A stretch of DNA of 64,000 nt from Akkermansiaceae bacterium (GTDB taxonomy: Bacteria; Gemmatimonadota; Gemmatimonadetes; Palauibacterales; Palauibacteraceae): assembly GCA_964195715.1 (NCBI GenBank), contig CAXMRU010000183.1, forward strand, positions 12,509 through 76,508, in the 5' to 3' direction. Under the pieces are notes generated by a model, which saw only the letters and a program-made list of their open reading frames with translations, was not told the DNA's origin and did no database searches. This document shows, one piece after another, positions 5,233-59,115 of the stretch. How positions within the stretch are numbered: position 1 is the first letter of the stretch; every line of letters starts with the position of its first letter. The translations under genes and the position numbers were made by a program.

Positions 5233-5261
5233 CTCCTACAGTGGCTGCGAGCGAGTATTGA

Positions 5262-5591: not shown

Positions 5592-5703
5592 GATGCTTCC
5601 TCGTTCCAGGTGGTAAAGCACTTGCTTCGAGTCTAGTTTCCGGTCCCGACGCCCTGTCAGACACGCCCGCAGGGCATCAATAAAACGCCATACGGGAACC
5701 GGA

Positions 5704-40352: not shown

Positions 40353-41918
40353 TCACTCCTTCGACTCGTCCGTCTCCTCTGTTGGCTCGACACCCGATTC
40401 CTGATCGGCTACCGCGGCACCGACCGGCTCGCCGTCCTCTGCGGTTGTATCGCTCACCGGCTCATCCTCGGCGTCCTCCACAGCTGTATCGCTCACTGCC
40501 TCATCGGCGGCGTCCGCCACGCCGTCCTCCGTAGATGCGGAGTCCTCAGACTCGGCGTCCTCATCCTGCGACTGCTGCGGCGCCGCGGAGGCGGCCTTGG
40601 CTGCCCCGGCGGGAGGTGCGTCCTCCAATGCCTCGTCCTCCACCGTCAGCTCATCGATTAACGCGAGAAGCAGAGCCGCGTCCTCGTCCCCGATACCGGG
40701 AACCTTGACGAAGTCCTCCCGATCCATATCCAGCACGTCGAAGAACGTGTTGATGCCTGCGGCCTGGAGAGCCGCCAGGACCGTCGGCTGGATGTCCTCG
40801 AGCTCCGACAGAGGAAAGTCGGAGACCTCATACTCATCATCGCCACCGAACAGGCTCGACTCCGCATTGCGGGACAGCCAGTCCCGACTCGAATACAGGT
40901 CGATCTGCCACCCGATCAGCTGTGCGGCCAGGCGCACATTCTGCCCGTTTCTCCCGATCGCCAGAGACAACTGCTCCTCATCGACGATGGCCGTCATGAC
41001 GTGGCGCTCGGAATCCGAAATCACCTTGGAGACCTTGGCCGGGGCCAGTGCTCTTCTCGCGAAAATTTCGGGATCCGGGTGCCACGGCACGATGTCGATA
41101 CGCTCGCCGGAGAGCTCCGACACCACGGCCTGAACGCGGGACCCCTTGAGGCCGACGCATGCGCCTACAGGGTCCACCGAGTCGTCCCGGGAAGACACCG
41201 CCACCTTCGTACGACCACCCGCCTCCCGGACGATTTCCTTGATCTCGACGATCCCCTGATAGACCTCGGGGATCTCGATCGCGAACAGTGCCTTCACGAA
41301 CAGCGGATCGGCGCGAGAGAGAATCAGGCGCGGCCCGCGTGGTGTCTCTTCAAGCTTGGAGAGGACCGCCCGGATCGTCTCTCCCTGCCGGAAGCGCTCC
41401 CTGGGGTTTTGCTCTCGCCATGGGATCACGGCTTCCGCTTCACGAACACGATTCAGCATGACCACGATCTTGCCTCGCTCGATCGCCTGCACTTCGCCGG
41501 ACACGAGGTCCCCGACCATGCCGCTGAACTCCTCGCGAATGCGGTCCCGCTCTCCCTCGCGAACGCGCTGAATGATCCTCTGCTTGGCTGCCATGACTGC
41601 GTTGCGGCCGAATTCGGAGAACTCCACCGGAATCTCCAGCAGATCTCCCACCTGGAATTCCGAATCATCCCAGCGGGCCTCCTCGACGGAGATCTCGCGC
41701 GCCGGATCTTCGACCTTCTCCACGACCTCCTTCAGGACGACGATCTTGATATCCCCCTCGGGGAGAATCTCGATCTCCGCCTCCACGGGCCCTCCGAATC
41801 GACGCGCCAGGGCGGCATGAATGCCGTCCCTGATCAGGTCATGCAACTCTGCATCTGACAGCGACTTATTAGCTGCCATCACACGAAAGGCTTCAACGAC
41901 CGGAATCTGATCGCTCAT
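40353..41918 (-). CDS. nusA: Transcription termination/antitermination factor NusA (with long acidic C-terminal tail)
   Basis: Starts MSDQIPVVEAF. NusA N-domain, an S1 domain and two KH domains (GACVGLKGSRVQAV; AIGRNGQNVRLAAQL). About 90-aa D/E/A-rich repetitive tail. Confidence 0.9.
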   Translation of the reverse strand: MSDQIPVVEAFRVMAANKSLSDAELHDLIRDGIHAALARRFGGPVEAEIEILPEGDIKIVVLKEVVEKVEDPAREISVEEARWDDSEFQVGDLLEIPVEFSEFGRNAVMAAKQRIIQRVREGERDRIREEFSGMVGDLVSGEVQAIERGKIVVMLNRVREAEAVIPWREQNPRERFRQGETIRAVLSKLEETPRGPRLILSRADPLFVKALFAIEIPEVYQGIVEIKEIVREAGGRTKVAVSSRDDSVDPVGACVGLKGSRVQAVVSELSGERIDIVPWHPDPEIFARRALAPAKVSKVISDSERHVMTAIVDEEQLSLAIGRNGQNVRLAAQLIGWQIDLYSSRDWLSRNAESSLFGGDDEYEVSDFPLSELEDIQPTVLAALQAAGINTFFDVLDMDREDFVKVPGIGDEDAALLLALIDELTVEDEALEDAPPAGAAKAASAAPQQSQDEDAESEDSASTEDGVADAADEAVSDTAVEDAEDEPVSDTTAEDGEPVGAAVADQESGVEPTEETDESKE

Positions 41919-41943
41919 GTGCGGTCTCAATCCTCCTGCGCCC

Positions 41944-42438
41944 TCAGGACTCATCCCCGAACTCGAAAACCAGCGTCGCCTTCGCGACCTCCGACAGAGC
42001 CACCTTAAGTCGCTCGCCGGCCACATCCAGCACCACCTCTTCAGCCCCAGGCTGCACTGCCTCCAGTCCTATGAGCCGCCCTACCACTTGCCGGCTCCCA
42101 CCGGCGATGGCTCCGAATCCTCTGATCCGGACCTTCTCTCCCGCGAACCGCGCATAGTCTCGCGGTTTCGTCAGCGGCCGCTCGACGCCCGGCGACGACA
42201 CCTCCAGGCCCCAGTCCTGTTCGCCCGAACCCCTCTGCTCGAGGAACTCGCGCACCGCACGACTGATCGCCTGGCAGTCGTCGACCGTCACGCTGGATCG
42301 ACCGGGCCGACTGTCCGGTCGATCCACCCTCAGACGAAGCAGGGGGCGTCGTCGCCCCCCACCGCGCTCCACCGTGACCAGCTCAAAGCCGATGCCGGCC
42401 AGGAGCTCGTCCAAGCCTTGCTCAAGGCTCTGCTCCAT
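41944..42438 (-). CDS. rimP: Ribosome maturation factor RimP
   Basis: 164 aa with RimP family similarity (LEVSSPGVERPL). First gene of the nusA-infB operon. Confidence 0.85.
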   Translation of the reverse strand: MEQSLEQGLDELLAGIGFELVTVERGGGRRRPLLRLRVDRPDSRPGRSSVTVDDCQAISRAVREFLEQRGSGEQDWGLEVSSPGVERPLTKPRDYARFAGEKVRIRGFGAIAGGSRQVVGRLIGLEAVQPGAEEVVLDVAGERLKVALSEVAKATLVFEFGDES

Positions 42439-42484
42439 ATGGACAAGCCACCTTCCACCTGCACACGGGTTCGCGAGCGACCCG

Positions 42485-42520
42485 CAACAAAAAAGTGGGG
42501 CCGATAAGGGTTCCCCACTT
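42485..42520 (-). terminator. Rho-independent terminator between pgeF and rimP
   Basis: On the minus strand: perfect 8-bp stem AAGTGGGG / CCCCACTT with a 12-nt loop, followed by TTTTTTGTTG. Confidence 0.5.
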
Positions 42521-43406: not shown

Positions 43407-44690
43407 TCAGCGGTCCTCCTCCACCCGATCGATCCTGCCACCGAGTGCACGCAGTCGCTCGTCGATACGCTCGTAGCCTCGTTCGATCTGCCCGATGTTG
43501 TAAATTCGGCTGACTCCGTCCGCTGCGAGCGCCGCGATCAAGAGCGCCATCCCGGCCCTGATATCGGGGCTTTCAACGGTGGTTCCACGCAGCCTCGAGG
43601 GCCCCACGACAACGGCCCTGTGCGGATCGCACAGGACGATCCTCCCGCCCATGGCGATCACCTTGTCGGCAAAGTACATCCGGGACTCGAACATCTTCTC
43701 GTGGATCAGGATCGTCCCCCGACACCGGGTTGCCACCACCAAAGCGATCGACATCAGGTCGGCCGGAAACGCCGGCCAGGGACCATCGCCGAGCGATGGA
43801 ACCTGGTCGCCTATGTCCGGCTGTACCTCCAACGACTGGTCCGATGGGACGTGCAGATGGCCGTCCCTGAGGTCGCAGTGTATTCCAAGGCGCTCGAAGC
43901 CGATCCGCAGGGGATCCATGTGGGCAGAGTCAACGTCCTCGATCACGACTTCCGAACCGGTGATCGCAGCCAGGCCGACGATGCTTCCGATCTCGATGTG
44001 GTCCGCTCCGATCCTGTGCCGGGTTCCCCCCAGCCGCTCGACCCCATGGATGGTCAGGTCATGTGTCCCGACGCCATGGATCACGGCACCCATCGAGACC
44101 AGGAACGCGCACAGATCCTGCACGTGAGGCTCCGCCGCCGCGTTCCTGAGCCGGGTCGTACCCTCCGCCGTCACGGCGGCGAGGATGGCGTTCTCAGTAC
44201 CCGTGACGGACGGCTCGTCCAGGAAGATGTCGGCGCCCCGAAGACGGCGGGCCCTCAGCTCGTACCGGTCCCCGACCTCCACCTCGGCACCCAGCTTCCC
44301 GAGCGCCAGGAAGTGAGTGTCGAGTCTGCGGCGCCCGATCACATCCCCACCCGGGGGAGGCAGGACCAGCGAGCCGAACCGTGCGAGCAGCGGACCGGCG
44401 AGGAGAATCGACGCCCGGATGCGCCGTGACAAGTCGGGATCCAGATCCCCACCGTGCACACCTCGCGGGTCCACAACCACACGTCCGCCCCCCTGCCAGT
44501 CGACGGCAGCTCCCAGGCTCGTCAAGAGGTCGATCATCGTATGAACGTCCCTGATGTCAGGCACGTTCTCCAGAGTGACCAGCTCGTCCGCGAGGAGGGA
44601 TCCGGCCAGAATCGGCAACGCCGCATTCTTGTTCCCGGCGGGCTTGAACCGGCCGCTGAGCTTGGCCGGCCCCTCGATCCGATAGTGCAT
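43407..44690 (-). CDS. murA: UDP-N-acetylglucosamine 1-carboxyvinyltransferase
   Basis: 427-aa EPT-fold enzyme with full-length MurA similarity (KLSGRFKPAGNKNAALPILA). Confidence 0.95.
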   Translation of the reverse strand: MHYRIEGPAKLSGRFKPAGNKNAALPILAGSLLADELVTLENVPDIRDVHTMIDLLTSLGAAVDWQGGGRVVVDPRGVHGGDLDPDLSRRIRASILLAGPLLARFGSLVLPPPGGDVIGRRRLDTHFLALGKLGAEVEVGDRYELRARRLRGADIFLDEPSVTGTENAILAAVTAEGTTRLRNAAAEPHVQDLCAFLVSMGAVIHGVGTHDLTIHGVERLGGTRHRIGADHIEIGSIVGLAAITGSEVVIEDVDSAHMDPLRIGFERLGIHCDLRDGHLHVPSDQSLEVQPDIGDQVPSLGDGPWPAFPADLMSIALVVATRCRGTILIHEKMFESRMYFADKVIAMGGRIVLCDPHRAVVVGPSRLRGTTVESPDIRAGMALLIAALAADGVSRIYNIGQIERGYERIDERLRALGGRIDRVEEDR

Positions 44691-44788
44691 TCGTCGCTCC
44701 TGCTATCCTTACCACATCAGGGCCCGATCGGCCTCGGCGCGCCAAGTTAGACCTCCGCCGTGCACCGCGGCAACGCAGGCTCGGGCCT

Positions 44789-44819
44789 TCTTGACAGGTT
44801 TTTGGACGGGCCTCTATGC
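44789..44819 (+). promoter_or_regulatory. Putative sigma70-like promoter upstream of ptsN
   Basis: TTGACA (44789-44794) and TATGCT (44814-44819), separated by a rather long 19-nt spacer, about 65 nt upstream of the ptsN start. Confidence 0.25.
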
Positions 44820-44882
44820 TTTAGATGATCAGCTGGTGTGCCGGACCCGGCGACACAGCACATTCCGTGGGGAGCCGAGCAG

Positions 44883-45347
44883 ATGACGCTCACCGAATAC
44901 CTATCGGATGACCGGGTCGTAACGGACGTTCGCAACGACGATGTCCGGGGCATCCTGCAGCAACTCATCGACCCTCTCATCCGAAGTGGATCGCTCGACA
45001 ATCCCCAGGTCGTGATCGCAGCGCTTCTGGCCAGGGAGAAGGTCCTCAGCACTGGGATCGGCCACGGCATCGCGGTTCCACACGCGATCAGTGCGGCGAT
45101 CCCCGAACCGCAGGTCCTCCTGGGGATCAGCCCGGACGGTGCCGACTACGGATCGATGGACGGTGAGCCGGTACGCGTGTTCTTCGTTCTCCTTTCGCCT
45201 CCTGATCGGGCGAGTCACCATACTCGGTTGCTGGCGCGGATCGCCCGGCTGTGCAGAGATTCCGCCTTCGTGGACGGGCTGGTCGCGTGCACGGAAGCGG
45301 GCGCAGCGGTGGAATACATCAACGAATATGAGAGAACCCACGCCTGA
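44883..45347 (+). CDS. ptsN: PTS EIIA-Ntr-like nitrogen regulatory protein (PTS IIA type-2 domain)
   Basis: Likely start MTLTEYL. PTS_EIIA_2 domain with the phospho-acceptor region GIGHGIAVPHA. Confidence 0.7.
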   Translation: MTLTEYLSDDRVVTDVRNDDVRGILQQLIDPLIRSGSLDNPQVVIAALLAREKVLSTGIGHGIAVPHAISAAIPEPQVLLGISPDGADYGSMDGEPVRVFFVLLSPPDRASHHTRLLARIARLCRDSAFVDGLVACTEAGAAVEYINEYERTHA

Positions 45348-45359
45348 GATGCCAAGCGC

Positions 45360-45713
45360 ATGGAAATGTTGATCGCTGTGATTGACGAACCGGACCACAC
45401 CGAGGAAATCCTCGCGGGTTTCCTGGAGCTCGGGATAACGGGCGCCACTCTGATTGGATCCGAGGGCATGGGCCGAGTGCTCAGCCAGGACGGCCCCGTA
45501 TTCGCGGGCCTTCAGAGCCTGATCTCCCACTCCAGGCCACGGAACCAGACGCTGTTCAGCGTGATCGAGGATCCTGCCAAAGTCGACCAGGCCATCGAGC
45601 TGATCGAGAGCGTGTGTGGCCGCTTCACCTCCCCATCAACCGGAATCGTCTTTACCGTGCCCGTGAACCGCGTGGTGGGCCTCGCGACGCGATGGGGGGG
45701 GGCTGGAGACTGA
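45360..45713 (+). CDS. PII-like (GlnB-superfamily) small signalling protein, hypothetical
   Basis: 117 aa. MLIAVIDEPDHTEEILAGFLELGITGATLIGSEGMGR parallels the GlnB/GlnK beta-alpha-beta core and T-loop region. Begins 12 nt after ptsN. Confidence 0.5.
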   Translation: MEMLIAVIDEPDHTEEILAGFLELGITGATLIGSEGMGRVLSQDGPVFAGLQSLISHSRPRNQTLFSVIEDPAKVDQAIELIESVCGRFTSPSTGIVFTVPVNRVVGLATRWGGAGD

Positions 45714-45835
45714 TCGATCCCTGACGAGACCGGCATGGCCCGCATCCTGCGGCTACTCCGTTCGGACAAGTTGTCCGGAAAGGAGTTTAGACCCATCTTT
45801 CTCGGAGTGTCTCCCTCATGGAAACGGGAGGATAG

Positions 45836-46288
45836 TTGAGCTTCTACGAGATTCTGGTCTTCATATCGTTGATCCTGTGGATCGCGCTGAGCCTCGTCGC
45901 GATCGTGAGCATGCTCGTCCTGCTGCCGCGAAGTCTGGCCGCATTGCGTCAGTTCCAGGAATCGCACGAGGAGTTCCTGAAGAAAGCGTTCCCTATTCTG
46001 GATCAGTCGAGACAGCTGCTCGATCAGGTGGGAACCGTGGCAACCTCTCTGGCCGATGACGTGGAGCGGATCGACCGCACTGTCATTCGCGCTACGAGCT
46101 CGGTGGAGGGAATGGTAGAACTGGCCGAAGAGCGCGTATCCGAGATCAACGCACTGCTCGAGGTGGCCGTCGAGGAAGCGGAGGAAACGTTCTTCTCGAC
46201 CGCCGCCATCATGCGAGCCCTGCGTCTCGGCGCGCGGTCCAGGAAGCGCCGCAAACTATCCCGAGGGGAGCGCAGGCGTACGGGTTGA
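45836..46288 (+). CDS. Hypothetical membrane protein (N-terminal TM helix, C-terminal helical region and basic tail)
   Basis: TTG start preceded by GGGAGGA. Hydrophobic N-terminus ILVFISLILWIALSLVAIVSMLVLL. Overlaps the next gene by 4 nt. Confidence 0.45.
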   Translation: MSFYEILVFISLILWIALSLVAIVSMLVLLPRSLAALRQFQESHEEFLKKAFPILDQSRQLLDQVGTVATSLADDVERIDRTVIRATSSVEGMVELAEERVSEINALLEVAVEEAEETFFSTAAIMRALRLGARSRKRRKLSRGERRRTG

Positions 46289-47283
46289 GCGGTCGAGCAC
46301 TTATCGGAAGCGTCGTTCTAGCCGGAGCGCTGCTGCTCCTCGTCCCTGACTCCGCCTTCGCGTGGGGGCCAGCCACGCACACCCAGATCGGACTCGAGGT
46401 ACTGCAATCCCTCAATCTCTTCCCTCCCTCGATCGCGGCGGTGCTGGCCCGGCATCCGATCGAGTTTCTATATGGCAGCCTGGCCGCGGACATCTCGATG
46501 GCGAAGAAGTACGCACCGGTCGGACGTCATTGCCATCACTGGCACGTCGCGCGGGAGATCTACCGGACGGCCGGGGATGACGGCCCGCTCAAATCGGCCA
46601 TGACCGGCTACCTGTGCCACCTGGCCGCGGACGTGCTGGCTCACAACACGTTCGTTCCCCGGATGCTGACGTTAACTTCCTCGACACGTGCGCTCGGGCA
46701 TTCCTATTGGGAACATCGCATGGACGTGGATGTCGGTGCCGAGTACGCCCAGCTCGCCCGCTGGATCGTCACACGCTTCGATCACTCCCGCACGGACGAG
46801 CTCTTCCACAGGGTGCTTTCGAGCACTCTCTTCAGCTTCTCGACCAATCGACGGATATTCCGAGGGATGATCCGTATCTCCGGAAATGAGAGTTGGCATT
46901 CGATTTTCGATACAGTCATCGACAACTCGCGCTGGGACCTGGATCCCACACAGGTCGTGCACTATCAGCGCTACGGCTTCGAGATGGTGGCCGATTTTCT
47001 GCTCCGCGACGAGTTGTCGCGTGCCTCAGCGGAAGACCCTATCGGCGACGCGAGCCTTGCGGAAGCAAAGAAGATCAGGCGGAGGGCTCTCCTGGCCGGA
47101 GGGTGGCAAAGCCGCGACGCGATCCGGTCCACGGCCGATCACCACTTCCCCCTGCCGACAGGGGTCACCCGGCTGTGGGAGGAACGGGGCGCTACGGCTG
47201 GCACAGCGCTCGAATCGGTCGAGCGTGCGGTTCGCGACACCGGAGCCACTCCACCCTCCGAGCTGGACACGATCTTCGGCTGA
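46285..47283 (+). CDS. Zinc-dependent phospholipase C / P1-nuclease-like family protein (secreted)
   Basis: Signal peptide ending AFA, with the mature protein starting WGPATH. N-terminal Trp plus His are hallmark zinc ligands of this family. His-rich (HCHHWH...HLAADVLAHN). Confidence 0.5.
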   Translation: MSGRALIGSVVLAGALLLLVPDSAFAWGPATHTQIGLEVLQSLNLFPPSIAAVLARHPIEFLYGSLAADISMAKKYAPVGRHCHHWHVAREIYRTAGDDGPLKSAMTGYLCHLAADVLAHNTFVPRMLTLTSSTRALGHSYWEHRMDVDVGAEYAQLARWIVTRFDHSRTDELFHRVLSSTLFSFSTNRRIFRGMIRISGNESWHSIFDTVIDNSRWDLDPTQVVHYQRYGFEMVADFLLRDELSRASAEDPIGDASLAEAKKIRRRALLAGGWQSRDAIRSTADHHFPLPTGVTRLWEERGATAGTALESVERAVRDTGATPPSELDTIFG

Positions 47284-47344
47284 GGCTCACGACCGGAGCA
47301 CCTTGAGCGTTTCATTCACTGCCCCTCCTCGAAGTCGTCGTGGA

Positions 47345-49669
47345 TCAGCAGGGTCGCAGACCGGCGTGTGCGACCATCACTTTCCTGCGCACGCCGTCGT
47401 CGAACTCGATCTCGGCCCGCGTCAGCCTCCCCTCCCCCGAGACGGACAGGATCAGGCCATCGCCGAACCGCGGGTGCACCACCTTCGCACCGACCTCCAG
47501 TCTCAGATCCTCCTGGGAATCCGAGTAGTCGTACCGTAGAGTGCCCTTCCCTTCGGCCGGGGCCTGGCGCTTGGCGCCGCGATGCCAGTCGAACGACGTG
47601 GCGCCCGTCTCCGACCAACCCGCTCCACTGGATACCCCACGACTCGGACTTCCAAATCCCCCCTCCACGGCCGGGGTTTTTCTCGAGGTGCCGTGTCTTC
47701 GGCCTCGGACGGTGACGCCCCACCGGCGAGTCCCTCCTCCCGGCGCGCGGTAGTCGACGGGACCCTCGGGCAGCTCGGCCAGGAACGACGATGGTGCCGA
47801 GCGCATTTCGCTGCCGTAGCGCCAGCGCCGATCGGCGTGCGAAATAAACAGCCTGTCTGCTGCCCGCGTCACGCCGACGTAGAACAGCCGCCGCTCCTCC
47901 TCCAGCTCCGCACGACTCTCCATGGCACGGGCGAGTGGAAACAGCCCGTCCTCCAGCCCGACGAGAAACACTATGGGAAACTCGAGCCCCTTGGCGTTGT
48001 GCATGGTCATGAGAGTTACGCCGGGCTCGCCCTCGTCGTAATCGTCGATATCGGCGTGCAGCGCCGACGATTGCAGGTACAGATCGAGCTCGCTGGACTC
48101 CCCGGTGGCATCGTCGACTTCCGCCGGATCGAACGTGGCCGCGGCCGCCAGCAGTTCCGTGACGTTCGCGATTCGATCCGCCCCATCCTCCTCCGTCTCC
48201 AGTGCCGCGACCATTCCGAAACTCCGGATGCACTCCTGGATCACTTCCTCGGTCGTACCCTCACGAGAGAGCTCCGACAACGCGCTCACTCCAGCAGCGA
48301 AATCCTCCAGTGCCCTGCCGCCCGCGGGCGGCACGCCGGGGAGTCCTGTCCCGAGTTCCGCAGCCGCGAGCAGGCTGATCGACCGGTCGGCCGCAGCCGC
48401 ACGGAGCCGGTCCAGCGTCACGCCGCCCACGCCACGCCGGGGCCAGGACACGGCGCGAGCAAACGCGGCTTCGTCCGCGGGATTCACGGCCAACTGCAAA
48501 TAGGACAGAACGTCCTTGATCTCCCGCCGCTCGTAGAACCGGACGCCACCTACGATTCGATACGGTATGCGTGCACGCCGCAATGCGTCCTCGAACGGCC
48601 TCGACTGAGCGTTGGTCCGGTACAGAACGACGTGATCCTCCGGCCCCGTGCCTGGTCCCGCCCCCTCTATCTCTCCGACCACCCACATCGCCTCGGCGCG
48701 CTCGTCCGCCAGGCGAATGACTTGAACCGGATCTCCAGCCGGACGCGCGGTCCGCAGGGTCTTCTCCTTCCGGTCCCGGTTGTTCGAGATCACCGCGTTG
48801 GCAACCTCCAGGATGGAGAGACTGGACCGGTAGTTCTCCTCGAGCCGGACGACCTCGGCTCCCGGAAAATCACGCTCGAAGTCGAGGATGTTCCTGATGT
48901 CGGCGCCCCGCCACCCGTAAATCGACTGGTCGTCATCACCTACCACGCAGATGTTCCCGTGCTCCTGGGCGAGTCGCTTGACGATGCGGTACTGCGCGTG
49001 GTTCGTGTCCTGGTACTCGTCGACGAGCACGTGCCGGAAACGCGACGCATATCGATCCCCGACCTCGGGTACCCCCTCCAGGAGGCGCGCCACGTTGGCC
49101 AGAAGATCATCGAAATCATAGGCGTTCGATCGGGCGAGGATCCGCTCATATGCCGGGTAGACCCGGGCCGTAGCCTTGGCTGCGAGGTCGAACGCAGAGG
49201 CGGAGTACTCGTCCGGGGATACGAGCGCATTCTTAGCGTCCGAGATGCGCGCGCGCAGCAGGTTCGGCGACCAGCGTTGCGGGTCGACGTCCGCCTCTTC
49301 CATCGCGCGTTTGATCGACCGGAGCGAGTCGTCTTCCGAATAGATCGTGAAGTTCGCTCCACGCTCAAGATGCGAGCCTTCGCGTCGCAGCAGGCGCGCG
49401 GCGATCGAGTGGAACGTCCCGATCCACAACCCCCGCGGCTCCTCACCCATGAGCCCCGCAATGCGCTCACGCATCATCCCTGCCGCCTTGTTCGTGAACG
49501 TGACGGCCAGGATGCGCTCGGGTCGCTCGCCCACCTCGAGGACAAGGCGGGCGACCCTCGCCGTAAGAACCCTCGTCTTGCCCGAGCCGGCCCCGGCCAG
49601 GACGAGAAGGGGACCGTCGCCGTACTCTACGGCGTGCCTCTGCTCCGGGTTGAGAGCCAGACCAGTCAA
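47345..49669 (-). CDS. pcrA: ATP-dependent DNA helicase PcrA/UvrD
   Basis: Helicase motifs LNPEQRHAVE, GAGSGKT and DEYQDTN, with the UvrD C-terminal domain. Probable TTG start ~49669, overlapping the kinase stop; the track ORF extends to 49984. Confidence 0.85.
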   Translation of the reverse strand: MTGLALNPEQRHAVEYGDGPLLVLAGAGSGKTRVLTARVARLVLEVGERPERILAVTFTNKAAGMMRERIAGLMGEEPRGLWIGTFHSIAARLLRREGSHLERGANFTIYSEDDSLRSIKRAMEEADVDPQRWSPNLLRARISDAKNALVSPDEYSASAFDLAAKATARVYPAYERILARSNAYDFDDLLANVARLLEGVPEVGDRYASRFRHVLVDEYQDTNHAQYRIVKRLAQEHGNICVVGDDDQSIYGWRGADIRNILDFERDFPGAEVVRLEENYRSSLSILEVANAVISNNRDRKEKTLRTARPAGDPVQVIRLADERAEAMWVVGEIEGAGPGTGPEDHVVLYRTNAQSRPFEDALRRARIPYRIVGGVRFYERREIKDVLSYLQLAVNPADEAAFARAVSWPRRGVGGVTLDRLRAAAADRSISLLAAAELGTGLPGVPPAGGRALEDFAAGVSALSELSREGTTEEVIQECIRSFGMVAALETEEDGADRIANVTELLAAAATFDPAEVDDATGESSELDLYLQSSALHADIDDYDEGEPGVTLMTMHNAKGLEFPIVFLVGLEDGLFPLARAMESRAELEEERRLFYVGVTRAADRLFISHADRRWRYGSEMRSAPSSFLAELPEGPVDYRAPGGGTRRWGVTVRGRRHGTSRKTPAVEGGFGSPSRGVSSGAGWSETGATSFDWHRGAKRQAPAEGKGTLRYDYSDSQEDLRLEVGAKVVHPRFGDGLILSVSGEGRLTRAEIEFDDGVRRKVMVAHAGLRPC

Positions 49670-50850
49670 GCGTCCGGACCCGCGAGCGGAAGAGAGATGG
49701 CGAAGCTCGTCCCCACGTCGGTGGATTCCAGCGTGATCGAGCCCTTGTGAGCGCTTACGAAGATCCGCCGAACCAGAGAGAGCCCGACGCCCCACCCGCC
49801 CTGCTTCGTCGTGACTCCCACGTCGAACAGGCGCCCACGGAGCGCGGGGTCGACCCCCGGGCCATCGTCGGCGAAGCGCAGCCGAGCCATTCCGTCTTCC
49901 GCGCCTTGCCACGTCACGCTGATCACCCCGTCGCGGCCGGCAAGCGAGTCCAGAGCATTCTTGAACAGATTCTCGAAGGCCCACTCGAGGAGCGTCTCGT
50001 TACCCAGTACCGGCGGCGCGTCCTCCGGAACCTTGGTCACGAGGCTCACGTGCTCGCGCATGGACGGTGTCCGCGCACGGAAATATCTCCCGAGCCGGTC
50101 GACCACCTCGTACAGCGACACGGGGCGGAACGCGGTTTTCCTCCCGATCAGCTCGAAACGCCGCGACACCTTCTCCAGACGCCGGACGTCGTCCTCCATC
50201 TCCTCGAGCACGCCGATTCCGTCGGGTCGCAGGGCCTCTGGCGGGGCCGTGTCCTCGAGCAGCTCGAGCCAGCCGACCAGGGAGCTCAGCGGCGTGCCCA
50301 TCTGGTGCGCGGATTCCCTGGCCATTGCTGTCCAGATCCGTTCCCTCTCGCTCCGGGAGGAAGTGCGAATCATCCAGACGCCGGTGCCCACCACGCCGAG
50401 GAGCAACATGGCCTGCAGCCACGGAATCCAACGCAGCCGCCGCAAGTAGAGAGGCACACCGTAGTGCACTACGAAATTCCGGTCGGTGTCTACCAGCGGA
50501 GGATTCTCCGCATCCAGGCTCTCCACATAGCGGCGCACACGCTCCACGTGATCGGGATCGTCGAGCTTCGCCTCGAAGGGGAGGTTGCGGGTCAGGGTCG
50601 GGGAGCCCTCCATGTCCGTCTGCACGACCGGAATTCCCAGGTCGTACAGCTGAAGTAGGAGCTTGAACTCGGATTCCGCGGTCATGCCTTCCGGAGACGC
50701 GACGGCCTGCACCACCTGGAAGTAGATGTGGCTGAACACAGCTGCGTTGGCCCGCATCTCCTGCGACAGCTGCCAGGTGTAGGCGAGATAGGATATCAGG
50801 ACCGCAGAGAATGCGGCGACGATGCCGATCGGTACCAGTCGCCGGATCAC
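49666..50850 (-). CDS. Sensor histidine kinase (orphan)
   Basis: Two N-terminal TM segments, HisKA H-box ESAHQMGTPLSSL, and an HATPase_c domain (NLFKNALDS, DDGPGV, GGWGVGLSL). Confidence 0.8.
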   Translation of the reverse strand: MIRRLVPIGIVAAFSAVLISYLAYTWQLSQEMRANAAVFSHIYFQVVQAVASPEGMTAESEFKLLLQLYDLGIPVVQTDMEGSPTLTRNLPFEAKLDDPDHVERVRRYVESLDAENPPLVDTDRNFVVHYGVPLYLRRLRWIPWLQAMLLLGVVGTGVWMIRTSSRSERERIWTAMARESAHQMGTPLSSLVGWLELLEDTAPPEALRPDGIGVLEEMEDDVRRLEKVSRRFELIGRKTAFRPVSLYEVVDRLGRYFRARTPSMREHVSLVTKVPEDAPPVLGNETLLEWAFENLFKNALDSLAGRDGVISVTWQGAEDGMARLRFADDGPGVDPALRGRLFDVGVTTKQGGWGVGLSLVRRIFVSAHKGSITLESTDVGTSFAISLPLAGPDA

Positions 50851-52127
50851 GAAACCGTAAGTTTCTCCTGTCGCACTCGGTCGCGCAGCGCCTCGGGGAC
50901 GATCACGCTGCCGTCCTCCTGCTGGTTATTTTCGAGCACGGCCGCCAGGATTCTCGCCAGCGCGACGCCCGACCCGTTGAGCGTATGCACGAACGAGGGC
51001 TTCGCAGTCCCGTCCGCTCGATACCGGATGTCGGCTCGCCTCGCCTGGTAGTCGGTGTAACAAGAGCAACTCGACACTTCCAACCACCGGCCCACGCCCG
51101 CCGACCACACCTCGAGATCGTACGTGATCGCGTTGGCGAATCCGAGGTCGCCGGCCGGAAGGAGAATTCGGCGATACGGAAGCTCCAGCTTCTCGAGCAC
51201 GGTCTCCGCGTGACGCGTGAGCACCTCGAGCTCGTCCCCGGAGGCCTCCGGCTCCGTAAACCGCACGAGCTCCACCTTGTCGAACTGGTGCACCCGCAGG
51301 AGTCCGCGAGTGTCGCGACCCGCCGCCCCTGCCTCCCGACGGAAGCAAGGAGTATACGCGACATAGGCTATCGGAAGCTCACGTCCGTCGAGAATCTCAC
51401 CGCGATGAAGGTTCGTAAGTGGGACCTCGGCAGTCGGTATGAGAAACAGGTCGTCCGGCTCCGTCCGATACTGGTCCTCTTCGAACTTCGGAAGCTGCCC
51501 CGTCCCGACCAGGCAATCGCGATTCGTGAGAAACGGAGGCGCTACCTCCGTGTATCCGTGCTCTCGCGTATGGAGGTCCAGCATGAAATCGATGAGGGCC
51601 CGGTTGAGCCGGGCGCCCGCGCCCATCAGGAGAGGAAACCCGGACCCGGCGATGCGAGCCCCTCGCTCGAGGTCGAGCAGGCCAAGGTCCGACCCCAGGT
51701 CCCAGTGAGTCCGCGCCTCGAAGTCCATGGCACGAGGGGTGCCCCACTCGTGGACGACCTCGAATTCGCCTTCCCCTCCCGCCGGGACCCGCTCATCGGG
51801 AATATTGGGGATGCTAAGGAGCTCGCCACGGAGGGCGTCCTCGATCTCCTGAAGACCACCGTCCAGACCGCGGATATGGTCCGCGACCGTCTGCATATCG
51901 GCGATCAGCTCCGACGCGTCCGCGCCGTCCCGCTTCCGGTCCCCGATCTCGTGGGACACCTCGTTACGACGCGCCTTGAGTACCTCGACTTCGGCGATAA
52001 TGTCCCGTCGCCGAGCGTCGAGCGCCAGGGCCCTATCCAGCGCCTCGAGGACGCTCGGATCACCGCGGCGGGCCAGACGCTCCCGGACTTCGTCCGCCCC
52101 GGCACGGAACGTCCGGAGGTCGAGCAC
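50847..52127 (-). CDS. serS: Serine--tRNA ligase
   Basis: 426 aa with an N-terminal coiled-coil tRNA-binding arm and a class II core (FRREAG, GSGVALARI). Confidence 0.95.
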   Translation of the reverse strand: MLDLRTFRAGADEVRERLARRGDPSVLEALDRALALDARRRDIIAEVEVLKARRNEVSHEIGDRKRDGADASELIADMQTVADHIRGLDGGLQEIEDALRGELLSIPNIPDERVPAGGEGEFEVVHEWGTPRAMDFEARTHWDLGSDLGLLDLERGARIAGSGFPLLMGAGARLNRALIDFMLDLHTREHGYTEVAPPFLTNRDCLVGTGQLPKFEEDQYRTEPDDLFLIPTAEVPLTNLHRGEILDGRELPIAYVAYTPCFRREAGAAGRDTRGLLRVHQFDKVELVRFTEPEASGDELEVLTRHAETVLEKLELPYRRILLPAGDLGFANAITYDLEVWSAGVGRWLEVSSCSCYTDYQARRADIRYRADGTAKPSFVHTLNGSGVALARILAAVLENNQQEDGSVIVPEALRDRVRQEKLTVS

Positions 52128-52688
52128 CTACTCCTCGGCCCCCGGCACCAGCGTTCGCTTCTCGCAGTTCGGATTCACCAGGTGTATGAACGAGATCGTC
52201 CCTTCCATCGGGTCGATCGCCTGGATCTCCACCTTGGCAAACCTCCTGCAGCGAAGGTTGCCGAACGCGGGGTCGCGTCGGCTCTGAACAGCAAATACAT
52301 CGCCCACTGCGACCGGCAGGGAATCCAGGTTCGTGTACCCGTTCTCCGGGGCCTCACGCAGCGCGTCGAACGTCTGCAAGACCTTCTGCAGGCCCGCGTC
52401 CAGGTCCTCACCCGTGATCGCGCCACGCGGCCACAACACGGCGCTGCCATCCTCCTGGATCTGGAACAGGAAATCCCAGCCGGAGAACTGATCGGTCCGT
52501 ACCGACCCGCCCGTGATCACATCGAATGCTGACGGGTCGGCGACCGCACCAGCAGACACGTCCACCAGCGTGGCCTCTCCCGGCTCGTCCGGAATGGGAA
52601 TCAGGGTCGGCTCCAACGAGTTGCTACAGGCGGTCAGCCCGAAAAGGGTCACGGCCATCGCGACCCCCATATATCGATTCAAAGACAA
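52128..52688 (-). CDS. Hypothetical lipoprotein
   Basis: Signal peptide with lipobox LTAC (MGVAMAVTLFGLTAC). Directly abuts serS. Confidence 0.5.
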   Translation of the reverse strand: MSLNRYMGVAMAVTLFGLTACSNSLEPTLIPIPDEPGEATLVDVSAGAVADPSAFDVITGGSVRTDQFSGWDFLFQIQEDGSAVLWPRGAITGEDLDAGLQKVLQTFDALREAPENGYTNLDSLPVAVGDVFAVQSRRDPAFGNLRCRRFAKVEIQAIDPMEGTISFIHLVNPNCEKRTLVPGAEE

Positions 52689-52836
52689 GAGATCTGCTCC
52701 TCCAAGGGTTGCTCCTCCCCGGCAAGATAGCAGAGTTTCTCCCCGGCGCGAGGTCCAGTACCTTGCATCTCATGGCCAGATTACTCGCGTCGGCACTCGC
52801 TGTTCCCGATTCCGCCAGGGCAGCCCGGAGTACCAG

Positions 52837-53874
52837 ATGACACTGACTCATTCGTGCTTTGTCGTCGTGCTGGCAGGCGGCGAGGGGAGCCGCTTCTGGC
52901 CCGCGTCGAGGCCGGAGCGTCCGAAGCAGCTTCTCCCGCTCGGAAGCGACCATCCCCTGATCGAGGACACACTCGTCCGCGCAGATGCTCTCGTGGGTCC
53001 GGAACGTGTCCGGGTGATCGCGAGCGCGCCTCTCGTTGACCCGCTGTGCGCGGCGGCCCCGGGCCTTGACGCGACCAGCTTCCTCGTCGAGCCCACGGCG
53101 CGCAACACGGGCCCGGCGCTCACGTGGGCGGCGTTCGAGATCGAACGCGAGAGTCCGGGATCTCTGATGATCTCCCTGCACGCCGATCACGTCATACATC
53201 CGCTGGACGAATTCCTAGAGACGATCGGGCGAGCGGTGGAGGCAGCCGAGCGGGGATCCCTCGTCTGCATAGGTATCGAGCCCGATCGACCGGAAACGGG
53301 CTACGGATACGTTGAGGTCGGTGAGTCGACAGGTGACCGGACCTCGCGCGCCCTCCGGTTCGTCGAGAAGCCCGATCGGGCGACGGCAGAGGCATACCTG
53401 GCGAAGGGTGGCTTCCTCTGGAATTCAGGGATTTTCGTATGGCGTGCCGCCGCTCTGCTCGCGGCGATCCGAGACCTGGCCCCTGAGATCTCCGGTGCGC
53501 TACCGCTTCTCGAGTCCCACGGCCCGGAGGCCTTCTTCGCGGCCGTCGAGGCAGTGAGCATCGACGTATCCGTAATGGAGCGATCGCCGTCGGTCGAGGT
53601 GGTCCGAGCGAGTTTCTCGTGGGACGATGTGGGCTCGTGGAACGCCCTCGCCCGGACGCGAGAGGCGGACGAGCACGGCAATATCATCGTGGGCCCCGCT
53701 GCAGTGTTCGAAGCCGCGAATAACATCGTGTGGGCCGAAGACGGCGACGTGGTGCTGTTCGGCGTCGACGACCTCGTGGTCGTCCGATCCGGCAACCGGA
53801 CGCTAGTCATGAGGCGTTCGTCGGCGCCCGATCTAAAGAGGCTCGTGGAGCGCCTGCGCGAGGGAGGCGAGTGA
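52837..53874 (+). CDS. Mannose-1-phosphate guanylyltransferase-like nucleotidyltransferase
   Basis: ATG at 52837. NTP-transferase motif LAGGEGSRFWP...PKQLL with ManC/GMP-like similarity and no cupin domain; 345 aa. Confidence 0.7.
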   Translation: MTLTHSCFVVVLAGGEGSRFWPASRPERPKQLLPLGSDHPLIEDTLVRADALVGPERVRVIASAPLVDPLCAAAPGLDATSFLVEPTARNTGPALTWAAFEIERESPGSLMISLHADHVIHPLDEFLETIGRAVEAAERGSLVCIGIEPDRPETGYGYVEVGESTGDRTSRALRFVEKPDRATAEAYLAKGGFLWNSGIFVWRAAALLAAIRDLAPEISGALPLLESHGPEAFFAAVEAVSIDVSVMERSPSVEVVRASFSWDDVGSWNALARTREADEHGNIIVGPAAVFEAANNIVWAEDGDVVLFGVDDLVVVRSGNRTLVMRRSSAPDLKRLVERLREGGE

Positions 53875-53875
53875 C

Positions 53876-55108
53876 GTGAAACTATATCTGTTCGACGACC
53901 GAGTGGCCGACGATTGGCACCCGTATTCGCTCACGCGTCCCGTCTCAGAGCTCCTGTACGGCACACTGCTCTTGCGTGAGCGCCTCGAGCGATTCGCCGG
54001 CCGACCCGTAACGGCTCTACTGAGCCGCGCGTGGCTACAGCAGTTTCAGGAACCCGGAGCGCCCACAGCGTTCGCCCGCGATGAAGAGCTGCCCGAGGAC
54101 GAGCGCCTTCTGCTGTCTTCGCGATTCGTTCCCGGGGCGCATGCACGGTTCGAGGGACGTGGAGACGCCCCCATCCTGCTCGTAACGGAGGATGAAATCG
54201 TCGGCTGCTACCTGCCGCAGGGACATCGCGGACCGGAACCCGGCTGGCTCGAGGCGCCTGGAGGTCCCGCTGGACCCGGAGACTGGGTCGAGAGGCAGGT
54301 CGATGGGGGGTGCGTGAACGCCGTCTGGCGACTCGTGGCCGAGAACCCGGGCCGGCTGGAGGCGGACCTGGCTGCCGAAGCGGCCTCTCGCGGAGGTATC
54401 GAGCAACTACCTCAAGGGACCTGGCGGCAGGGTGACGCGGCGCTGATGCTCGGCGCCGACGTCCGGGTCGAGCCCGGCGTCCTGTTCGACACCCGACACG
54501 GCCCCATTCGGCTGGCAGACGGCGTGGAGGTGCGGGCGGGCTCGCGCCTCGAGGGTCCCCTGCACGTGGGCCGCGACACGATCCTGCTCGGAGGGGCGAT
54601 CGGGACTTCCAGCATCGGTCCCGTGTGCCGGCTGCGGGGAGAGATCGAGGAATCCGTGATCCTCGGGCAGTCGAACAAGGCGCATGACGGATTCCTGGGA
54701 CACTCGTATGTCGGTCGGTGGGTGAACCTGGGGGCGATGACCACCAACAGCGACCTCAAGAACAACTACGGCCCGGTTCGCCTCGGCAGCCCCGCGGGCC
54801 CGGTCGAGACGGGTTTGACCAAGCTGGGGTGCCTGCTCGGCGATCACGTGAAGACGGCGATCGGGACCCGTATCAATACTGGAACCGTGGTCGGTGCCGG
54901 AGCCAACCTGTTCGGCGACTCGATTCCGCCGGCCTGGGTACGCCCATTTGCGTGGGGATCGGACCCGGCGGGACCCCTGTTCGAGCAAGTTCGCTTCCTG
55001 AGTCTCGCGAAGCGCGTTCTCGAGCGCCGTGGCGTGCAGTACGACGAGCAGACGGACGCCTGGTTGGCGGCATGCTGGGATGCTGGCACCGGGGAGGATG
55101 GCGTTTGA
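53876..55108 (+). CDS. GlmU-like putative sugar nucleotidyltransferase with left-handed beta-helix (hexapeptide-repeat) domain
   Basis: GTG start 1 nt after the preceding stop. N-terminus MKLYLFDDRVADDWHPYSLTRPVSEL. C-terminal hexapeptide repeats. Confidence 0.55.
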   Translation: MKLYLFDDRVADDWHPYSLTRPVSELLYGTLLLRERLERFAGRPVTALLSRAWLQQFQEPGAPTAFARDEELPEDERLLLSSRFVPGAHARFEGRGDAPILLVTEDEIVGCYLPQGHRGPEPGWLEAPGGPAGPGDWVERQVDGGCVNAVWRLVAENPGRLEADLAAEAASRGGIEQLPQGTWRQGDAALMLGADVRVEPGVLFDTRHGPIRLADGVEVRAGSRLEGPLHVGRDTILLGGAIGTSSIGPVCRLRGEIEESVILGQSNKAHDGFLGHSYVGRWVNLGAMTTNSDLKNNYGPVRLGSPAGPVETGLTKLGCLLGDHVKTAIGTRINTGTVVGAGANLFGDSIPPAWVRPFAWGSDPAGPLFEQVRFLSLAKRVLERRGVQYDEQTDAWLAACWDAGTGEDGV

Positions 55109-55965
55109 GGGTCGCCACACTGGGTAGCGGGAGCCGGGGCAACTCCGTGTTCATCGAATGCGGAGAGACCCGGTTCCTGGTGGACGCGGGATTCAGCGGA
55201 GCCGAGATCGCCCGGCGCCTGGCGGTGCTCGGAGTGGATCCCGGGTCGATTCAAGGAATCGTCGTCACCCACGAGCATCGCGATCACACGGCAGGAATCG
55301 GCATCGCCGCCCGCCGTTGGAAATGGCCTCTGTACATCACCCCCGCCACACAGCGCGCCTGTGCACCCCTTCTCCGCGGGGCGGAGACGATCCGTCACTA
55401 CCGGGGCGAAGTGCCCTTCGATCTCGGAGAGGTCACGATTCACCCGGCGTCCACGTGCCATGACGCGGCGGATCCTGTCGCCCTGACGGTGACGGACACA
55501 CAGAGCGGACTGAAGGTGGGCGTCGCGACCGACCTCGGGCGGGCGACCACATCGGTTAGAGTCGCGCTCTCCGGATGCCATTTCGTGGTACTGGAGTCGA
55601 ACCACGACGAGATCATGCTTCGCGAGAGTCCGTACCCATGGTCGGTGAAGCAGCGGATCGGTGGAAGCCGCGGCCACCTGTCGAACCGGCTCGCCGCTGA
55701 CCTGTCCGTCGACTTGCTCCACCCGGAGCTCGGAGGCTTCCTGCTGGCGCACCTCAGCGACGAATGCAACGAGCCCGAGGCGGCCAGGAACATGGCCCGC
55801 AAGCAACTGGAGCGGAAAGGTTTCCGGGGCGTAGTGGACGTCGCGCGACAGGAGCAGCCCTCGGCTCTATACGACGTAGCTTCCCTCGTGGATACCGTGC
55901 GAAACGGGGGGGCTCAGCTCGAGTTCTTCGGCCAGGTAGCGCGGCGGCCCGTGGCGCCCCGCTGA
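55105..55965 (+). CDS. MBL-fold metallo-hydrolase (YycJ/WalJ-like)
   Basis: TTG start overlapping the previous stop (TTGA). Metallo-beta-lactamase motif HEHRDH, plus conserved downstream H/D residues. Confidence 0.7.
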   Translation: MRVATLGSGSRGNSVFIECGETRFLVDAGFSGAEIARRLAVLGVDPGSIQGIVVTHEHRDHTAGIGIAARRWKWPLYITPATQRACAPLLRGAETIRHYRGEVPFDLGEVTIHPASTCHDAADPVALTVTDTQSGLKVGVATDLGRATTSVRVALSGCHFVVLESNHDEIMLRESPYPWSVKQRIGGSRGHLSNRLAADLSVDLLHPELGGFLLAHLSDECNEPEAARNMARKQLERKGFRGVVDVARQEQPSALYDVASLVDTVRNGGAQLEFFGQVARRPVAPR

Positions 55966-55975
55966 GTCTCCCCGA

Positions 55976-57070
55976 TCAGATCCCCACCAGGCGCATGATG
56001 TCGTTCGCGAACACGAGCACCATCAGCCCCAACACGAACATCATGCCGACCTGCGTCAGACGCAGACGGCTCTCTACGCTCACGGGTCGCCCCCCACGCA
56101 ACGCTTCAGCGAACAGGAACACGAGGTGCCCACCGTCCAGCACCGGTATAGGCAGCAGGTTGAGGACAGCGAGGTTCACGCTGATGATGGCCATGAAGTT
56201 CAGAAACGCCGAAAGCCCTTGCCGGGCGGCCGCCCCTGAGAGCTGACCGATCACGATCGGTCCACCGAGATCTCTGGCGGATTCACGCCCCGTCACGAGC
56301 CGTTTGAGGAACGTGAAGATCTCGAGTGTCCAGGCGCCGGTGCGGTGCCAGCCGGCAGCGACCGCCTCCGTCATGCTCAGGTCACGTGTGGCCCGGTCCA
56401 GCCAGGGACCCATGCCCACGCGACCGAATTCCACCGAGTCACGAGCAAACTCGACGTACACTACGTCCGGCTGCGGTGTCGCCTCGAGATCGACGCGTTC
56501 GGTCTCCCTCTGGACACGGAACGTAATCGGAACGGAGGGACGCATGCTCACATACTGCACCACTTCATCCCAGTTCTTGATCCGCCGTCCGTCGAGCTCG
56601 AGGATCACGTCGCCCCGCTGAAAACCAGCCTGCTCGGCAGGGCTGTCAGGAATCACATCTCCAACGATCGGGTCGATGATTCCCTCGGAGCCGGCGACGA
56701 ACGTAAACGCGGCGAAGGCGAAGACGAAGTTCATCGTCACACCCGCCACGATGACCAGGAACCGGGCCCACCATGGCTTGGCGTCGAAATCGCGCGGAGA
56801 GGGTTGACGAGCAGGCGCTGCCTGGCCCTCGAGCGCGGCCGTTGCCTCCTCTCCCACCATTCCTTCCATCTTCACGTAGCCGCCCAGCGGAATTGCTGCA
56901 AGCACGTATTCCGTCTCACCGCGCTTGAACCCGGCGATCTTCGGTCCGAAACCGATCGAGAATCGGGACACCTCGATGTCCACTGCTTTGGCCGCCCAGA
57001 AGTGCCCTAACTCGTGGACGAGGATAAGGACGCCCAGGACGACGACAGTCGACAAGATGGTGATCAGCAT
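55976..57070 (-). CDS. rseP: RIP metalloprotease RseP (site-2 protease, M50 family)
   Basis: HELGH zinc motif in the first TM helix, an internal PDZ domain, and a C-terminal LDGG motif. Confidence 0.85.
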   Translation of the reverse strand: MLITILSTVVVLGVLILVHELGHFWAAKAVDIEVSRFSIGFGPKIAGFKRGETEYVLAAIPLGGYVKMEGMVGEEATAALEGQAAPARQPSPRDFDAKPWWARFLVIVAGVTMNFVFAFAAFTFVAGSEGIIDPIVGDVIPDSPAEQAGFQRGDVILELDGRRIKNWDEVVQYVSMRPSVPITFRVQRETERVDLEATPQPDVVYVEFARDSVEFGRVGMGPWLDRATRDLSMTEAVAAGWHRTGAWTLEIFTFLKRLVTGRESARDLGGPIVIGQLSGAAARQGLSAFLNFMAIISVNLAVLNLLPIPVLDGGHLVFLFAEALRGGRPVSVESRLRLTQVGMMFVLGLMVLVFANDIMRLVGI

Positions 57071-57103
57071 TCGCTCAAGCCGCCAGATAAAAGGTGCGTT
57101 CGC

Positions 57104-59109: not shown

Positions 59110-59115
59110 GCACGC

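Follow-up and report, generated by a model that had tools for sequence, protein, structure and literature searches.

The subject of this analysis is a cluster of four co-directed genes in a 64,000-nucleotide (nt) stretch of contig CAXMRU010000183.1 from a Gemmatimonadota genome, hereafter called the window. The first two genes encode an EIIA protein of the phosphotransferase system (PTS) and a PII-like protein of 117 amino acids (aa). We favor, at somewhat better than even confidence, the view that these two proteins are the regulatory half of a three-part cation/proton antiporter module which has been orphaned in the window, with genes 3 and 4 forming an unrelated neighboring unit.

The four plus-strand open reading frames (ORFs) are located between a divergent murA-like gene and a convergent uvrD. 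The ORF list and the sequence show gaps of 12 nt and 122 nt and then an overlap of 4 nt between them, in agreement with an earlier note on this stretch; EIIA and the PII-like gene share a reading frame. Pfam backed the family assignments of all four genes (PTS_EIIA_2, P-II and Zn_dep_PLPC, and DUF948 with a score below its cutoff). The G+C content of the window is 64%, and all close homologs of its proteins came from Gemmatimonadota metagenome-assembled genomes (MAGs). The locus comprises the following features:

43407..44690, minus strand: murA-like gene (Pfam EPSP_synthase, 1.4e-64), divergent, the upstream boundary, found in 54/54 Gemmatimonadota loci
44791..44820, plus strand: sigma70-type promoter-like element TTGACA-18-TATGCT (10/12 in a consensus scan), upstream of the EIIA gene
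44883..45347, plus strand: EIIA gene, 154 aa (Pfam PTS_EIIA_2), with an alternative start at GTG 44838
45360..45713, plus strand: PII-like gene, 117 aa (Pfam P-II)
45714..45835, plus strand: PII-DUF948 spacer of 122 nt, which in relatives is the site of a Na_H_Exchanger gene, sometimes together with a NadE-like gene
45836..46288, plus strand: gene for a DUF948-like small membrane protein, TTG start, 150 aa
46285..47283, plus strand: gene for a protein resembling phospholipase C (PLC-like), TTG start, 332 aa (Pfam Zn_dep_PLPC)
47345..49984, minus strand: uvrD/pcrA helicase gene (Pfam UvrD-helicase, 7.7e-89), convergent, the downstream boundary, found in 52/54 loci

To place the locus among its relatives, the PII-like alignment was scanned against species-representative genomes. 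This gave 80 loci, all from Gemmatimonadota, in which the genes were mapped by tblastn; Pfam tables for three of the loci back the family assignments in the resulting map. The backbone order is rimP ... murA(-), [EIIA], PII, [Na_H_Exchanger], [CN_hydrolase/NadE-like], [DUF948], [YtxH], PLC, uvrD(-). Among the 73 loci with enough flanking sequence, both EIIA and the exchanger were found in 48, EIIA only in 11 (the window among them), the exchanger only in 5 and neither in 9, which places the antiporter gene in 53/73. The commonest architecture (18/54) is the layout of the window with an exchanger gene added between PII and DUF948.

A tblastn search found no exchanger or NadE-like homolog in the 64-kb window, and its nearest relatives (L005-L008) lack them as well. 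One of them, L008, has a 449-nt PII-DUF948 spacer (10355-10803) that contains a remnant of the C-terminal part (3' end) of the exchanger gene (tblastn, E 4e-6); nothing significant was found when an antiporter relic was sought in the 122-nt spacer of the window. Judged from gene order, the four-gene adjacency is a product of antiporter deletion in one clade: genes 2 and 3 are adjacent because this clade deleted the antiporter gene between them, along with the NadE-like gene present in some relatives. The proposal that the four genes are one module was thus not borne out, since the antiporter and the NadE-like gene separate genes 2 and 3 in relatives. It should also be noted that the antiporter genes of L010 (265 aa) and L004/L019 (185 + 242 aa) look broken and are either pseudogenes or MAG errors.

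A wider profile search, covering 1.84 billion representatives, returned 1026 PII-like relatives (representatives at 50% identity) at E <= 1e-3, including 455 at E <= 1e-10. They have the common signature GAT..S.GMG ... PIFAG ... NKTIF ... PGTGI.FT.PV, and among the names of their sources are Spirochaetia, Bacillota, candidate division CSSED10-310 and Planctomycetota. The genes flanking distant PII-like loci are unrelated to one another. The immediate neighborhoods were arranged as follows:

L085: EIIA-PII-NaH-NaH
L089: PII-NaH-like-NaH
L090 (1320-5695): PII, then a full Mrp/Mnh operon (MnhE, F, G, MbhD, MbhE, MnhB, C, D), with no EIIA and with an FGGY sugar kinase upstream
L092 and L094: PII-NaH
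L095: EIIA-NaH-PII
L087 (3463-5826) and L097 (4540-8594): EIIA-PII, then a GlpA-like dehydrogenase trio (DAO/Fer2_BFD, a second FAD protein, DUF1667)

The presence of the glycerol-3-phosphate-dehydrogenase-like trio beside the pair suggests a non-transport output. L087 and L088 are labelled Spirochaetia, and L097 is similarly organized.

In addition, a metagenome scan based on peptide patterns taken from a single part of the family yielded 80 further loci, which were classified by hidden Markov models (HMMs) built from the sequences in hand. The Gemmatimonadota backbone accounted for 27 of them, mostly as murA followed by PII-DUF948-PLC without EIIA or exchanger, and the other 53 came from other lineages with a G+C content of 0.32-0.71. 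EIIA was located immediately upstream of the PII-like gene in 41/43 assessable loci outside Gemmatimonadota. For 34 loci the third partner was identifiable: an exchanger in 22, a Ser/Thr kinase (Pkinase+PEGA) in 10 and another gene in 2. After dereplication of the PII-like proteins at 70% identity, 21 clusters remained, with EIIA adjacent or fused in 15/20 assessable clusters and an antiporter adjacent in 10/14 determinable ones. The neighboring CPA-type proteins have about 400-470 aa and no cytoplasmic regulatory domain detectable by Pfam; one neighbor is of the Mrp type. The earlier note had put forward a possible nitrogen/carbon or ion-transport signaling module. The ion-transport version is the one favored here, given that the third neighbor of the pair is most often an antiporter of the Na_H_Exchanger or Mrp type. 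In the window as a whole, such a transporter is missing.

Two further observations concern these neighborhoods. The loci with the pair followed by a Ser/Thr kinase with PEGA (L104, L111, L114, L119, L126, L128, L134, L135, L152, L155) represent a low-GC lineage (0.32-0.47). Tandem antiporter-type genes were found in three unrelated lineages (L085:5330-7863, L089:538-3047 and L178:5861-8652), where one gene of each tandem is a recognizable Na_H_Exchanger and the second is recognizable in L085 and too divergent for Pfam in L089 and L178. Such tandems may indicate a heteromeric transporter.

EIIA and the PII-like protein are a genuinely co-occurring pair, not only adjacent across phyla but in some cases fused. 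Protein P0357 consists of EIIA (residues 12-152) and a PII-like part (residues 175-280). Three fused homologs (P0418, P0419 and P0420) share 63-64% identity with it and were recovered from different sources, which rules out a one-off loss of a stop codon. The fusions are 289-314 aa long, and one member of this cluster is named Planctomycetota. In L178, the fusion gene (4901-5800) is followed by genes for a 456-aa membrane protein without a Pfam match and a 474-aa Na_H_Exchanger. Other fusions of PII-like proteins were also noticed, namely PII-like + PilZ (a c-di-GMP receptor domain) and, in a Bacillota MAG, PrmC methyltransferase + PII-like (P0356, 405 aa; P0276/P0391, 422 aa).

The PII-like protein of the window matched Pfam P-II (PF00543) with 30.3 bits against a cutoff of 25, while many of its relatives are just weak matches. 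An AlphaFold2 model, predicted as a single chain, had a predicted local distance difference test (pLDDT) score of 75.7 and the order beta-alpha-beta-beta-alpha-beta, that is, E-H-E-(loop 36-60)-E-H-E, with low confidence for residues 38-60. In a Foldseek search with this model, the top 50 PDB matches were all PII proteins (probability 1.0, E about 1e-6). Furthermore, the family profile aligns end to end with the PII protein 2gw8, with a T-loop of equal length. Based on the model, the Foldseek matches and the profile alignment, the 117-aa protein has a PII fold, as had been proposed for it. A PDB sequence search found no solved structure within the PII-like subfamily.

According to an HMM alignment to PII structures, Q39, K58, K90, R101 and R103, with which GlnB/GlnK contact ATP phosphates and 2-oxoglutarate, are replaced in the PII-like protein by V40, R/Q61, I96, G107 and A109, and the canonical Tyr51 aligns with S/T53 in Gemmatimonadota members. 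The motifs G27-x-T29 and G35-x-G37-R38 are retained. Since the contacts made by Q39, K58, K90, R101 and R103 are lost, a different ligand is probable, and ATP with 2-oxoglutarate in the canonical mode is unlikely. The most conserved part of the protein is the T-loop, SEGMGR..S.D.P.FAGLQ.L..RSRP.NQT, which is kept in all groups with or without an adjacent antiporter or EIIA; the clade of the window has SQDGPVF where the phylum consensus is SHDIPIF. This conservation is the pattern that would be expected of a protein-docking loop. The ratio of nonsynonymous to synonymous substitutions (dN/dS) for the gene was 0.10-0.17.

The EIIA protein matched Pfam PTS_EIIA_2 over its full length (103.5 bits, 1.2e-29, profile positions 2-143 of 144). 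Its phospho-acceptor is His67 in the motif G.G.A.PH. This His is conserved to at least 90% among 64 Gemmatimonadota orthologs, and the phospho-His is invariant in 49/49 EIIAs paired with PII-like proteins in other lineages. The protein fell short of the PtsN equivalog cutoffs (TIGR01419 and NF008145; 63.5 vs 138.7 bits and 47.1 vs 221), and the NCBIfam fruA-IIA model gave 82 bits, which is above the PtsN score yet below its own cutoff. The name ptsN, under which the gene had first been listed, therefore had to be given up as a family assignment: by sequence, the protein is an EIIA-Ntr-like stand-alone regulator, for which 'ptsN' denotes likeness and not membership. No PTS permease gene adjoins EIIA in any locus examined, which fits a regulatory EIIA. 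The dN/dS of the gene was 0.06-0.22.

The EIIA start is almost certainly ATG 44883, which gives the modal ortholog length of 154 aa, aligns with the ortholog starts and is preceded by a GGAG-type ribosome-binding site (RBS). The alternative GTG 44838 is disfavored by the ortholog lengths, the alignment of starts and the RBS at ATG 44883. Upstream, an element of the form cTTGACA-N17/18-(C)TATGCT/CATGCT is found about 95-105 nt 5' of the EIIA start in L005-L009, L011, L013, L016, L018 and L022. The sigma70-like promoter that had been suggested at TTGACA-18-TATGCT is probably real, because divergent relatives keep the element at an unchanged distance although the rest of their spacer cannot be aligned. 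The murA-EIIA spacer also carries a second conserved motif pair at 44737-44777, AAgtTAGA ... GGCAACG (on the minus strand cgTTGCC-N~18-TCTAACtt), which is likewise kept in divergent relatives and is probably the divergent murA promoter.

Parts of this arrangement have counterparts in known systems. Small soluble proteins that are co-encoded with cation transport or signal to it include KefF/KefG (with the CPA2 antiporters KefC/KefB) and the c-di-AMP-binding PstA/DarA. KefF/G are flavodoxin-like quinone reductases, not PII proteins. PstA has another loop architecture and gave only a weak profile match (E 0.15-0.5); canonical PII is closer in sequence to the window protein (E 7e-7), and the PDB sequence-search matches did not include SbtB.

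In the GlnK-AmtB and SbtB-SbtA systems, PII or PII-like proteins plug a co-encoded transporter with their T-loops (10.1101/2023.08.10.552651). The likeness consists in a small PII-fold protein encoded beside a secondary transporter and in a long conserved T-loop of canonical length. However, the partner here is a CPA or Mrp antiporter instead of an ammonium or bicarbonate transporter, the ATP/2-oxoglutarate contacts are lost, and EIIA is a near-constant second partner that is sometimes fused. In E. coli, unphosphorylated PtsN binds and inhibits the CPA1 antiporter YcgO (PMC11808508). Like PtsN, which is linked to K+ transport through YcgO, TrkA and KdpD, the EIIA described here is a stand-alone EIIA-2 with a phosphorylatable His and without an adjacent EIIB/EIIC partner, and it is genomically tied to a Na_H_Exchanger-family antiporter. 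It differs in not being an NCBIfam PtsN equivalog (63.5 vs 138.7 bits) and, as far as the 64-kb window shows, in not lying in an rpoN cluster. In addition, YcgO is bound at an RCK/CorC tail of its own. Pfam detects no tail of this kind in the antiporters considered here, whose loci encode a PII-like protein instead. In Azospirillum brasilense, the PII protein GlnZ captured both TrkA and a putative EIIA-Ntr, and a ternary complex was proposed, with direct PII-EIIA contact unconfirmed (PMC7646526). In that case, too, PII and EIIA-Ntr converge on a cation-transport regulator, but the PII is canonical and the genes are unlinked there, whereas they are adjacent or fused here.

By analogy with these systems, we suggest the following mechanism. 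The conserved T-loop would let a PII-like trimer bind the antiporter from the cytoplasmic side, in the manner of GlnK with AmtB and SbtB with SbtA; the trimer would probably sense a ligand other than the canonical triphosphate and 2-oxoglutarate. EIIA could modulate the complex depending on its phosphorylation, like unphosphorylated PtsN with YcgO. Such a device would couple the exchange of cations and protons to the state of carbon, nitrogen or energy supply. As for the organism of the window, the target of the pair, an antiporter or something else, is presumably encoded at another locus. A broader claim, to which we give rather less than even weight, is that of a phylum-spanning device: an obligate EIIA(Ntr-type)-PII-like pair may join the PTS phosphorelay to PII sensing and gate CPA/Mrp antiporters that have no regulatory domains of their own, having been rewired to Ser/Thr kinases or dehydrogenases elsewhere. 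No description of a PII-like/EIIA/antiporter module was found in the literature searched, the coverage of which was incomplete, so that this is weak evidence of novelty.

Several points weigh against the antiporter-module reading. All of the evidence that points to it is drawn from gene neighborhood, fusion and analogy, and in the window itself no antiporter adjoins the pair. In other lineages, a Ser/Thr kinase (10 loci, one cluster) or the GlpA-like trio replaces the transporter beside the pair. The PII-like gene and an unchanged T-loop persist in Gemmatimonadota clades without EIIA and antiporter at the locus; therefore, an adjacent antiporter cannot be the sole target of the PII-like protein. 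The Gemmatimonadota exchanger is a very divergent CPA, of which one copy scored 37.7 bits in Pfam and another had no match, and no NCBIfam match was obtained. As regards the phosphorelay that would charge EIIA, motif searches for an RpoN box and for HPr/EI gave nothing credible in the 64-kb window. Finally, the peptide patterns behind the metagenome counts came from a narrow alignment, which makes these counts biased, with many close relatives among the loci.

Some of these points would also suit a different explanation, namely that the pair is a general two-protein signaling hub with lineage-specific outputs (an antiporter, a Ser/Thr kinase, a GlpA-like dehydrogenase or, here, another target). 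The adjacency of EIIA and PII (41/43 loci; 15/20 clusters) is steadier than that of the antiporter (22/34; 10/14), ten loci have a Pkinase+PEGA kinase after the pair, and two lineages have the DAO/Fer2_BFD, FAD and DUF1667 genes there. The PII+PilZ and PrmC+PII fusions also fit such a hub, as does the purifying selection on the pair in the window, where no antiporter adjoins it. Nevertheless, antiporters are by far the commonest partner over independent backbones, they belong to two superfamilies (CPA and Mrp) and they include the fusion locus, and the kinase association is a single cluster at 70% identity. We regard the general hub as unlikely.

The second alternative is that the four genes are one operon and one unit, in which EIIA and the PII-like protein control the DUF948-like and PLC-like proteins, for example in lipid or envelope remodeling by nutrient status. 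The protein of gene 3 has an N-terminal transmembrane helix, a coiled-coil-like middle and a basic tail. Its DUF948 (PF06103) score of 21.2 bits is below the cutoff of 37.2, and positional orthologs scored 32.5 and 42.3-42.9 bits. A DUF948 gene occupies the equivalent position in 44/54 Gemmatimonadota loci, with a dN/dS of 0.06-0.24.

Gene 4 scored 52.3 bits (8.2e-14) with Zn_dep_PLPC (PF00882), above the Pfam threshold, and has the PLC/P1-nuclease fold. A predicted Sec-type signal peptide ends in AFA before W27-GPATH. The candidate zinc ligands, mapped by inspection of PLC-like motifs, are H32, D69, H82/H84, H112, D116, H120, H139 and E143, none of which varies among 30 homologs; W27 is almost constant in the same homologs, and over the phylum as a whole this residue is W or F. 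Searches at the sequence level matched no solved structure, Foldseek returned no match, and hhalign against B. cereus PLC gave no usable alignment. In comparison with the zinc PLCs (B. cereus PC-PLC, the N-domain of C. perfringens alpha-toxin and L. monocytogenes PlcB) and S1/P1 nucleases, the window protein, of which the AlphaFold2 model had a pLDDT of 83, has an additional helical C-terminal domain of about 180 aa. Its orthologs often have Phe instead of Trp at +1, and its gene is a core syntenic gene in a non-pathogen phylum. The H-x3-D-x3-H spacing is presumably shorter than in PLC. Gene 4 is predicted to encode an exported (secreted or periplasmic) tri-zinc phosphoesterase, for which activity as a phospholipase, a nuclease or another phosphoesterase is equally possible.

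The PLC-like gene had been called unusual in its context, but it occupies the same place between murA and uvrD in 52/54 Gemmatimonadota species loci. It is not out of context because PLC, DUF948/YtxH, murA and uvrD are backbone genes; on this syntenic evidence, it belongs to the core envelope genes of Gemmatimonadota rather than being an acquired oddity. Genes 3 and 4 form a phylum-wide envelope unit, separate from genes 1 and 2, and this unit may have its own promoter.

The single-operon alternative is in line with the co-directed, tightly packed arrangement and with a terminator scan that found no terminator-like site between the four genes. DUF948/YtxH and PLC always follow eventually 3' of the PII-like gene in Gemmatimonadota, directly so in a soil clade without EIIA and antiporter. 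However, murA and uvrD are equally constant, which argues for backbone synteny. In most species, one to three unrelated genes (antiporter, NadE-like, YtxH) lie between PII and PLC, and in none of about 60 loci outside the phylum does DUF948 or PLC stand beside the PII-like gene. The 122-nt spacer, moreover, has its own clade-conserved motif and RBS. We therefore consider a single four-gene unit improbable.

The motif in this spacer is the 15-mer TGGCCCGCATCCTGC at 45736-45750, with a -24/-12-like (sigma54-like) spacing. Its general form is TGGCCCGC[A/T]TCCTGC, located 101-113 nt upstream of the DUF948 start, and it is kept only in the window and L005-L008 (the antiporter-less clade) and absent from 73 other loci. 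As a sigma54 promoter it was rejected, given that bare TGGC-N8-TGC occurs 21 times in the 64-kb GC-rich window and that no RpoN or activator motif was found in the window; judged by its distribution, it is retained just as a clade-conserved motif. A 7-1-7 palindrome, CGGACAAGTTGTCCG, lies 3' of the 15-mer at 45763-45777, and the RBS has the sequence GGGAGGA. An Rfam scan of 44500-47500 gave no match.

It is very unlikely that the pair represents ordinary nitrogen regulators, that is, a GlnB/GlnK-type PII and PtsN acting on nitrogen assimilation. Such a role would agree with the P-II score above the Pfam cutoff, with homologs labelled 'nitrogen regulatory protein P-II' and with canonical PII proteins as the best structural matches. 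Against it stand the replaced canonical ligand residues, the Ser/Thr at the position of Tyr51, the EIIA score far under the PtsN equivalog cutoff and the failure to find linkage to rpoN, hpf or npr within the window. Furthermore, no amtB, glnA or nif gene adjoins the PII-like gene in 84 genome loci or 94 other loci, more than 170 in all.

Within the antiporter-less clade, purifying selection acts on each of the four window genes (dN/dS 0.06-0.24), and the relatives compared there covered a synonymous divergence (dS) between about 0.2 and about 1.9. It is hardly credible that the pair is decaying, functionless after the antiporter loss and kept by chance: the transporter gene is gone and some T-loop positions depart from the phylum consensus (SQDGPVF vs SHDIPIF), but both ORFs are intact with a dN/dS of 0.06-0.22 over this range of dS, and conservation extends to the promoter, the phospho-His and the core T-loop motif.

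The surroundings of the locus consist of housekeeping genes. Upstream are rimP, nusA and a Cu-oxidase_4 (YfiH-like) gene, and the region 49666-61408 contains a HATPase_c histidine kinase gene, serS, two nucleotidyl transferase genes, a gene for an rseP-type M50 protease, dxr, cdsA and thiI. Neither this region nor the upstream genes gave any hint of a mobile element or an island. Long ORFs antisense to real genes, such as 47582-49750 (plus strand, 722 aa) opposite uvrD, 44901-45530 (minus strand, 209 aa) opposite EIIA/PII, and 41917-42507 (plus strand), are the usual high-GC artefacts and not genes. The uvrD ORF has 879 aa; its true start is probably further downstream, because the first ~110 codons lie ahead of the helicase domain and run into the 3' end of the adjoining histidine-kinase gene.

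PII proteins and the nitrogen-PTS are the two great sensors of metabolic status in bacteria. On crosstalk among PII, the nitrogen-PTS and ion homeostasis, the sole published hint that we found is the unconfirmed PII-TrkA-EIIA-Ntr complex. An adjacent, sometimes fused pair that usually stands beside an antiporter offers a testable system with defined proteins for binding, ligand and transport assays, and it suggests how CPA antiporters without RCK/KTN domains are regulated. As for annotation, several hundred 'nitrogen regulatory protein P-II' entries are probably not nitrogen regulators. For the genome of the window, the meaning is more modest: it has an orphaned regulator pair and, in the PLC-like gene, a core envelope gene of Gemmatimonadota. 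More widely, the pair would combine a PII-type transporter regulator with an EIIA-Ntr-type regulator of ion transport in a widespread and apparently unstudied module.

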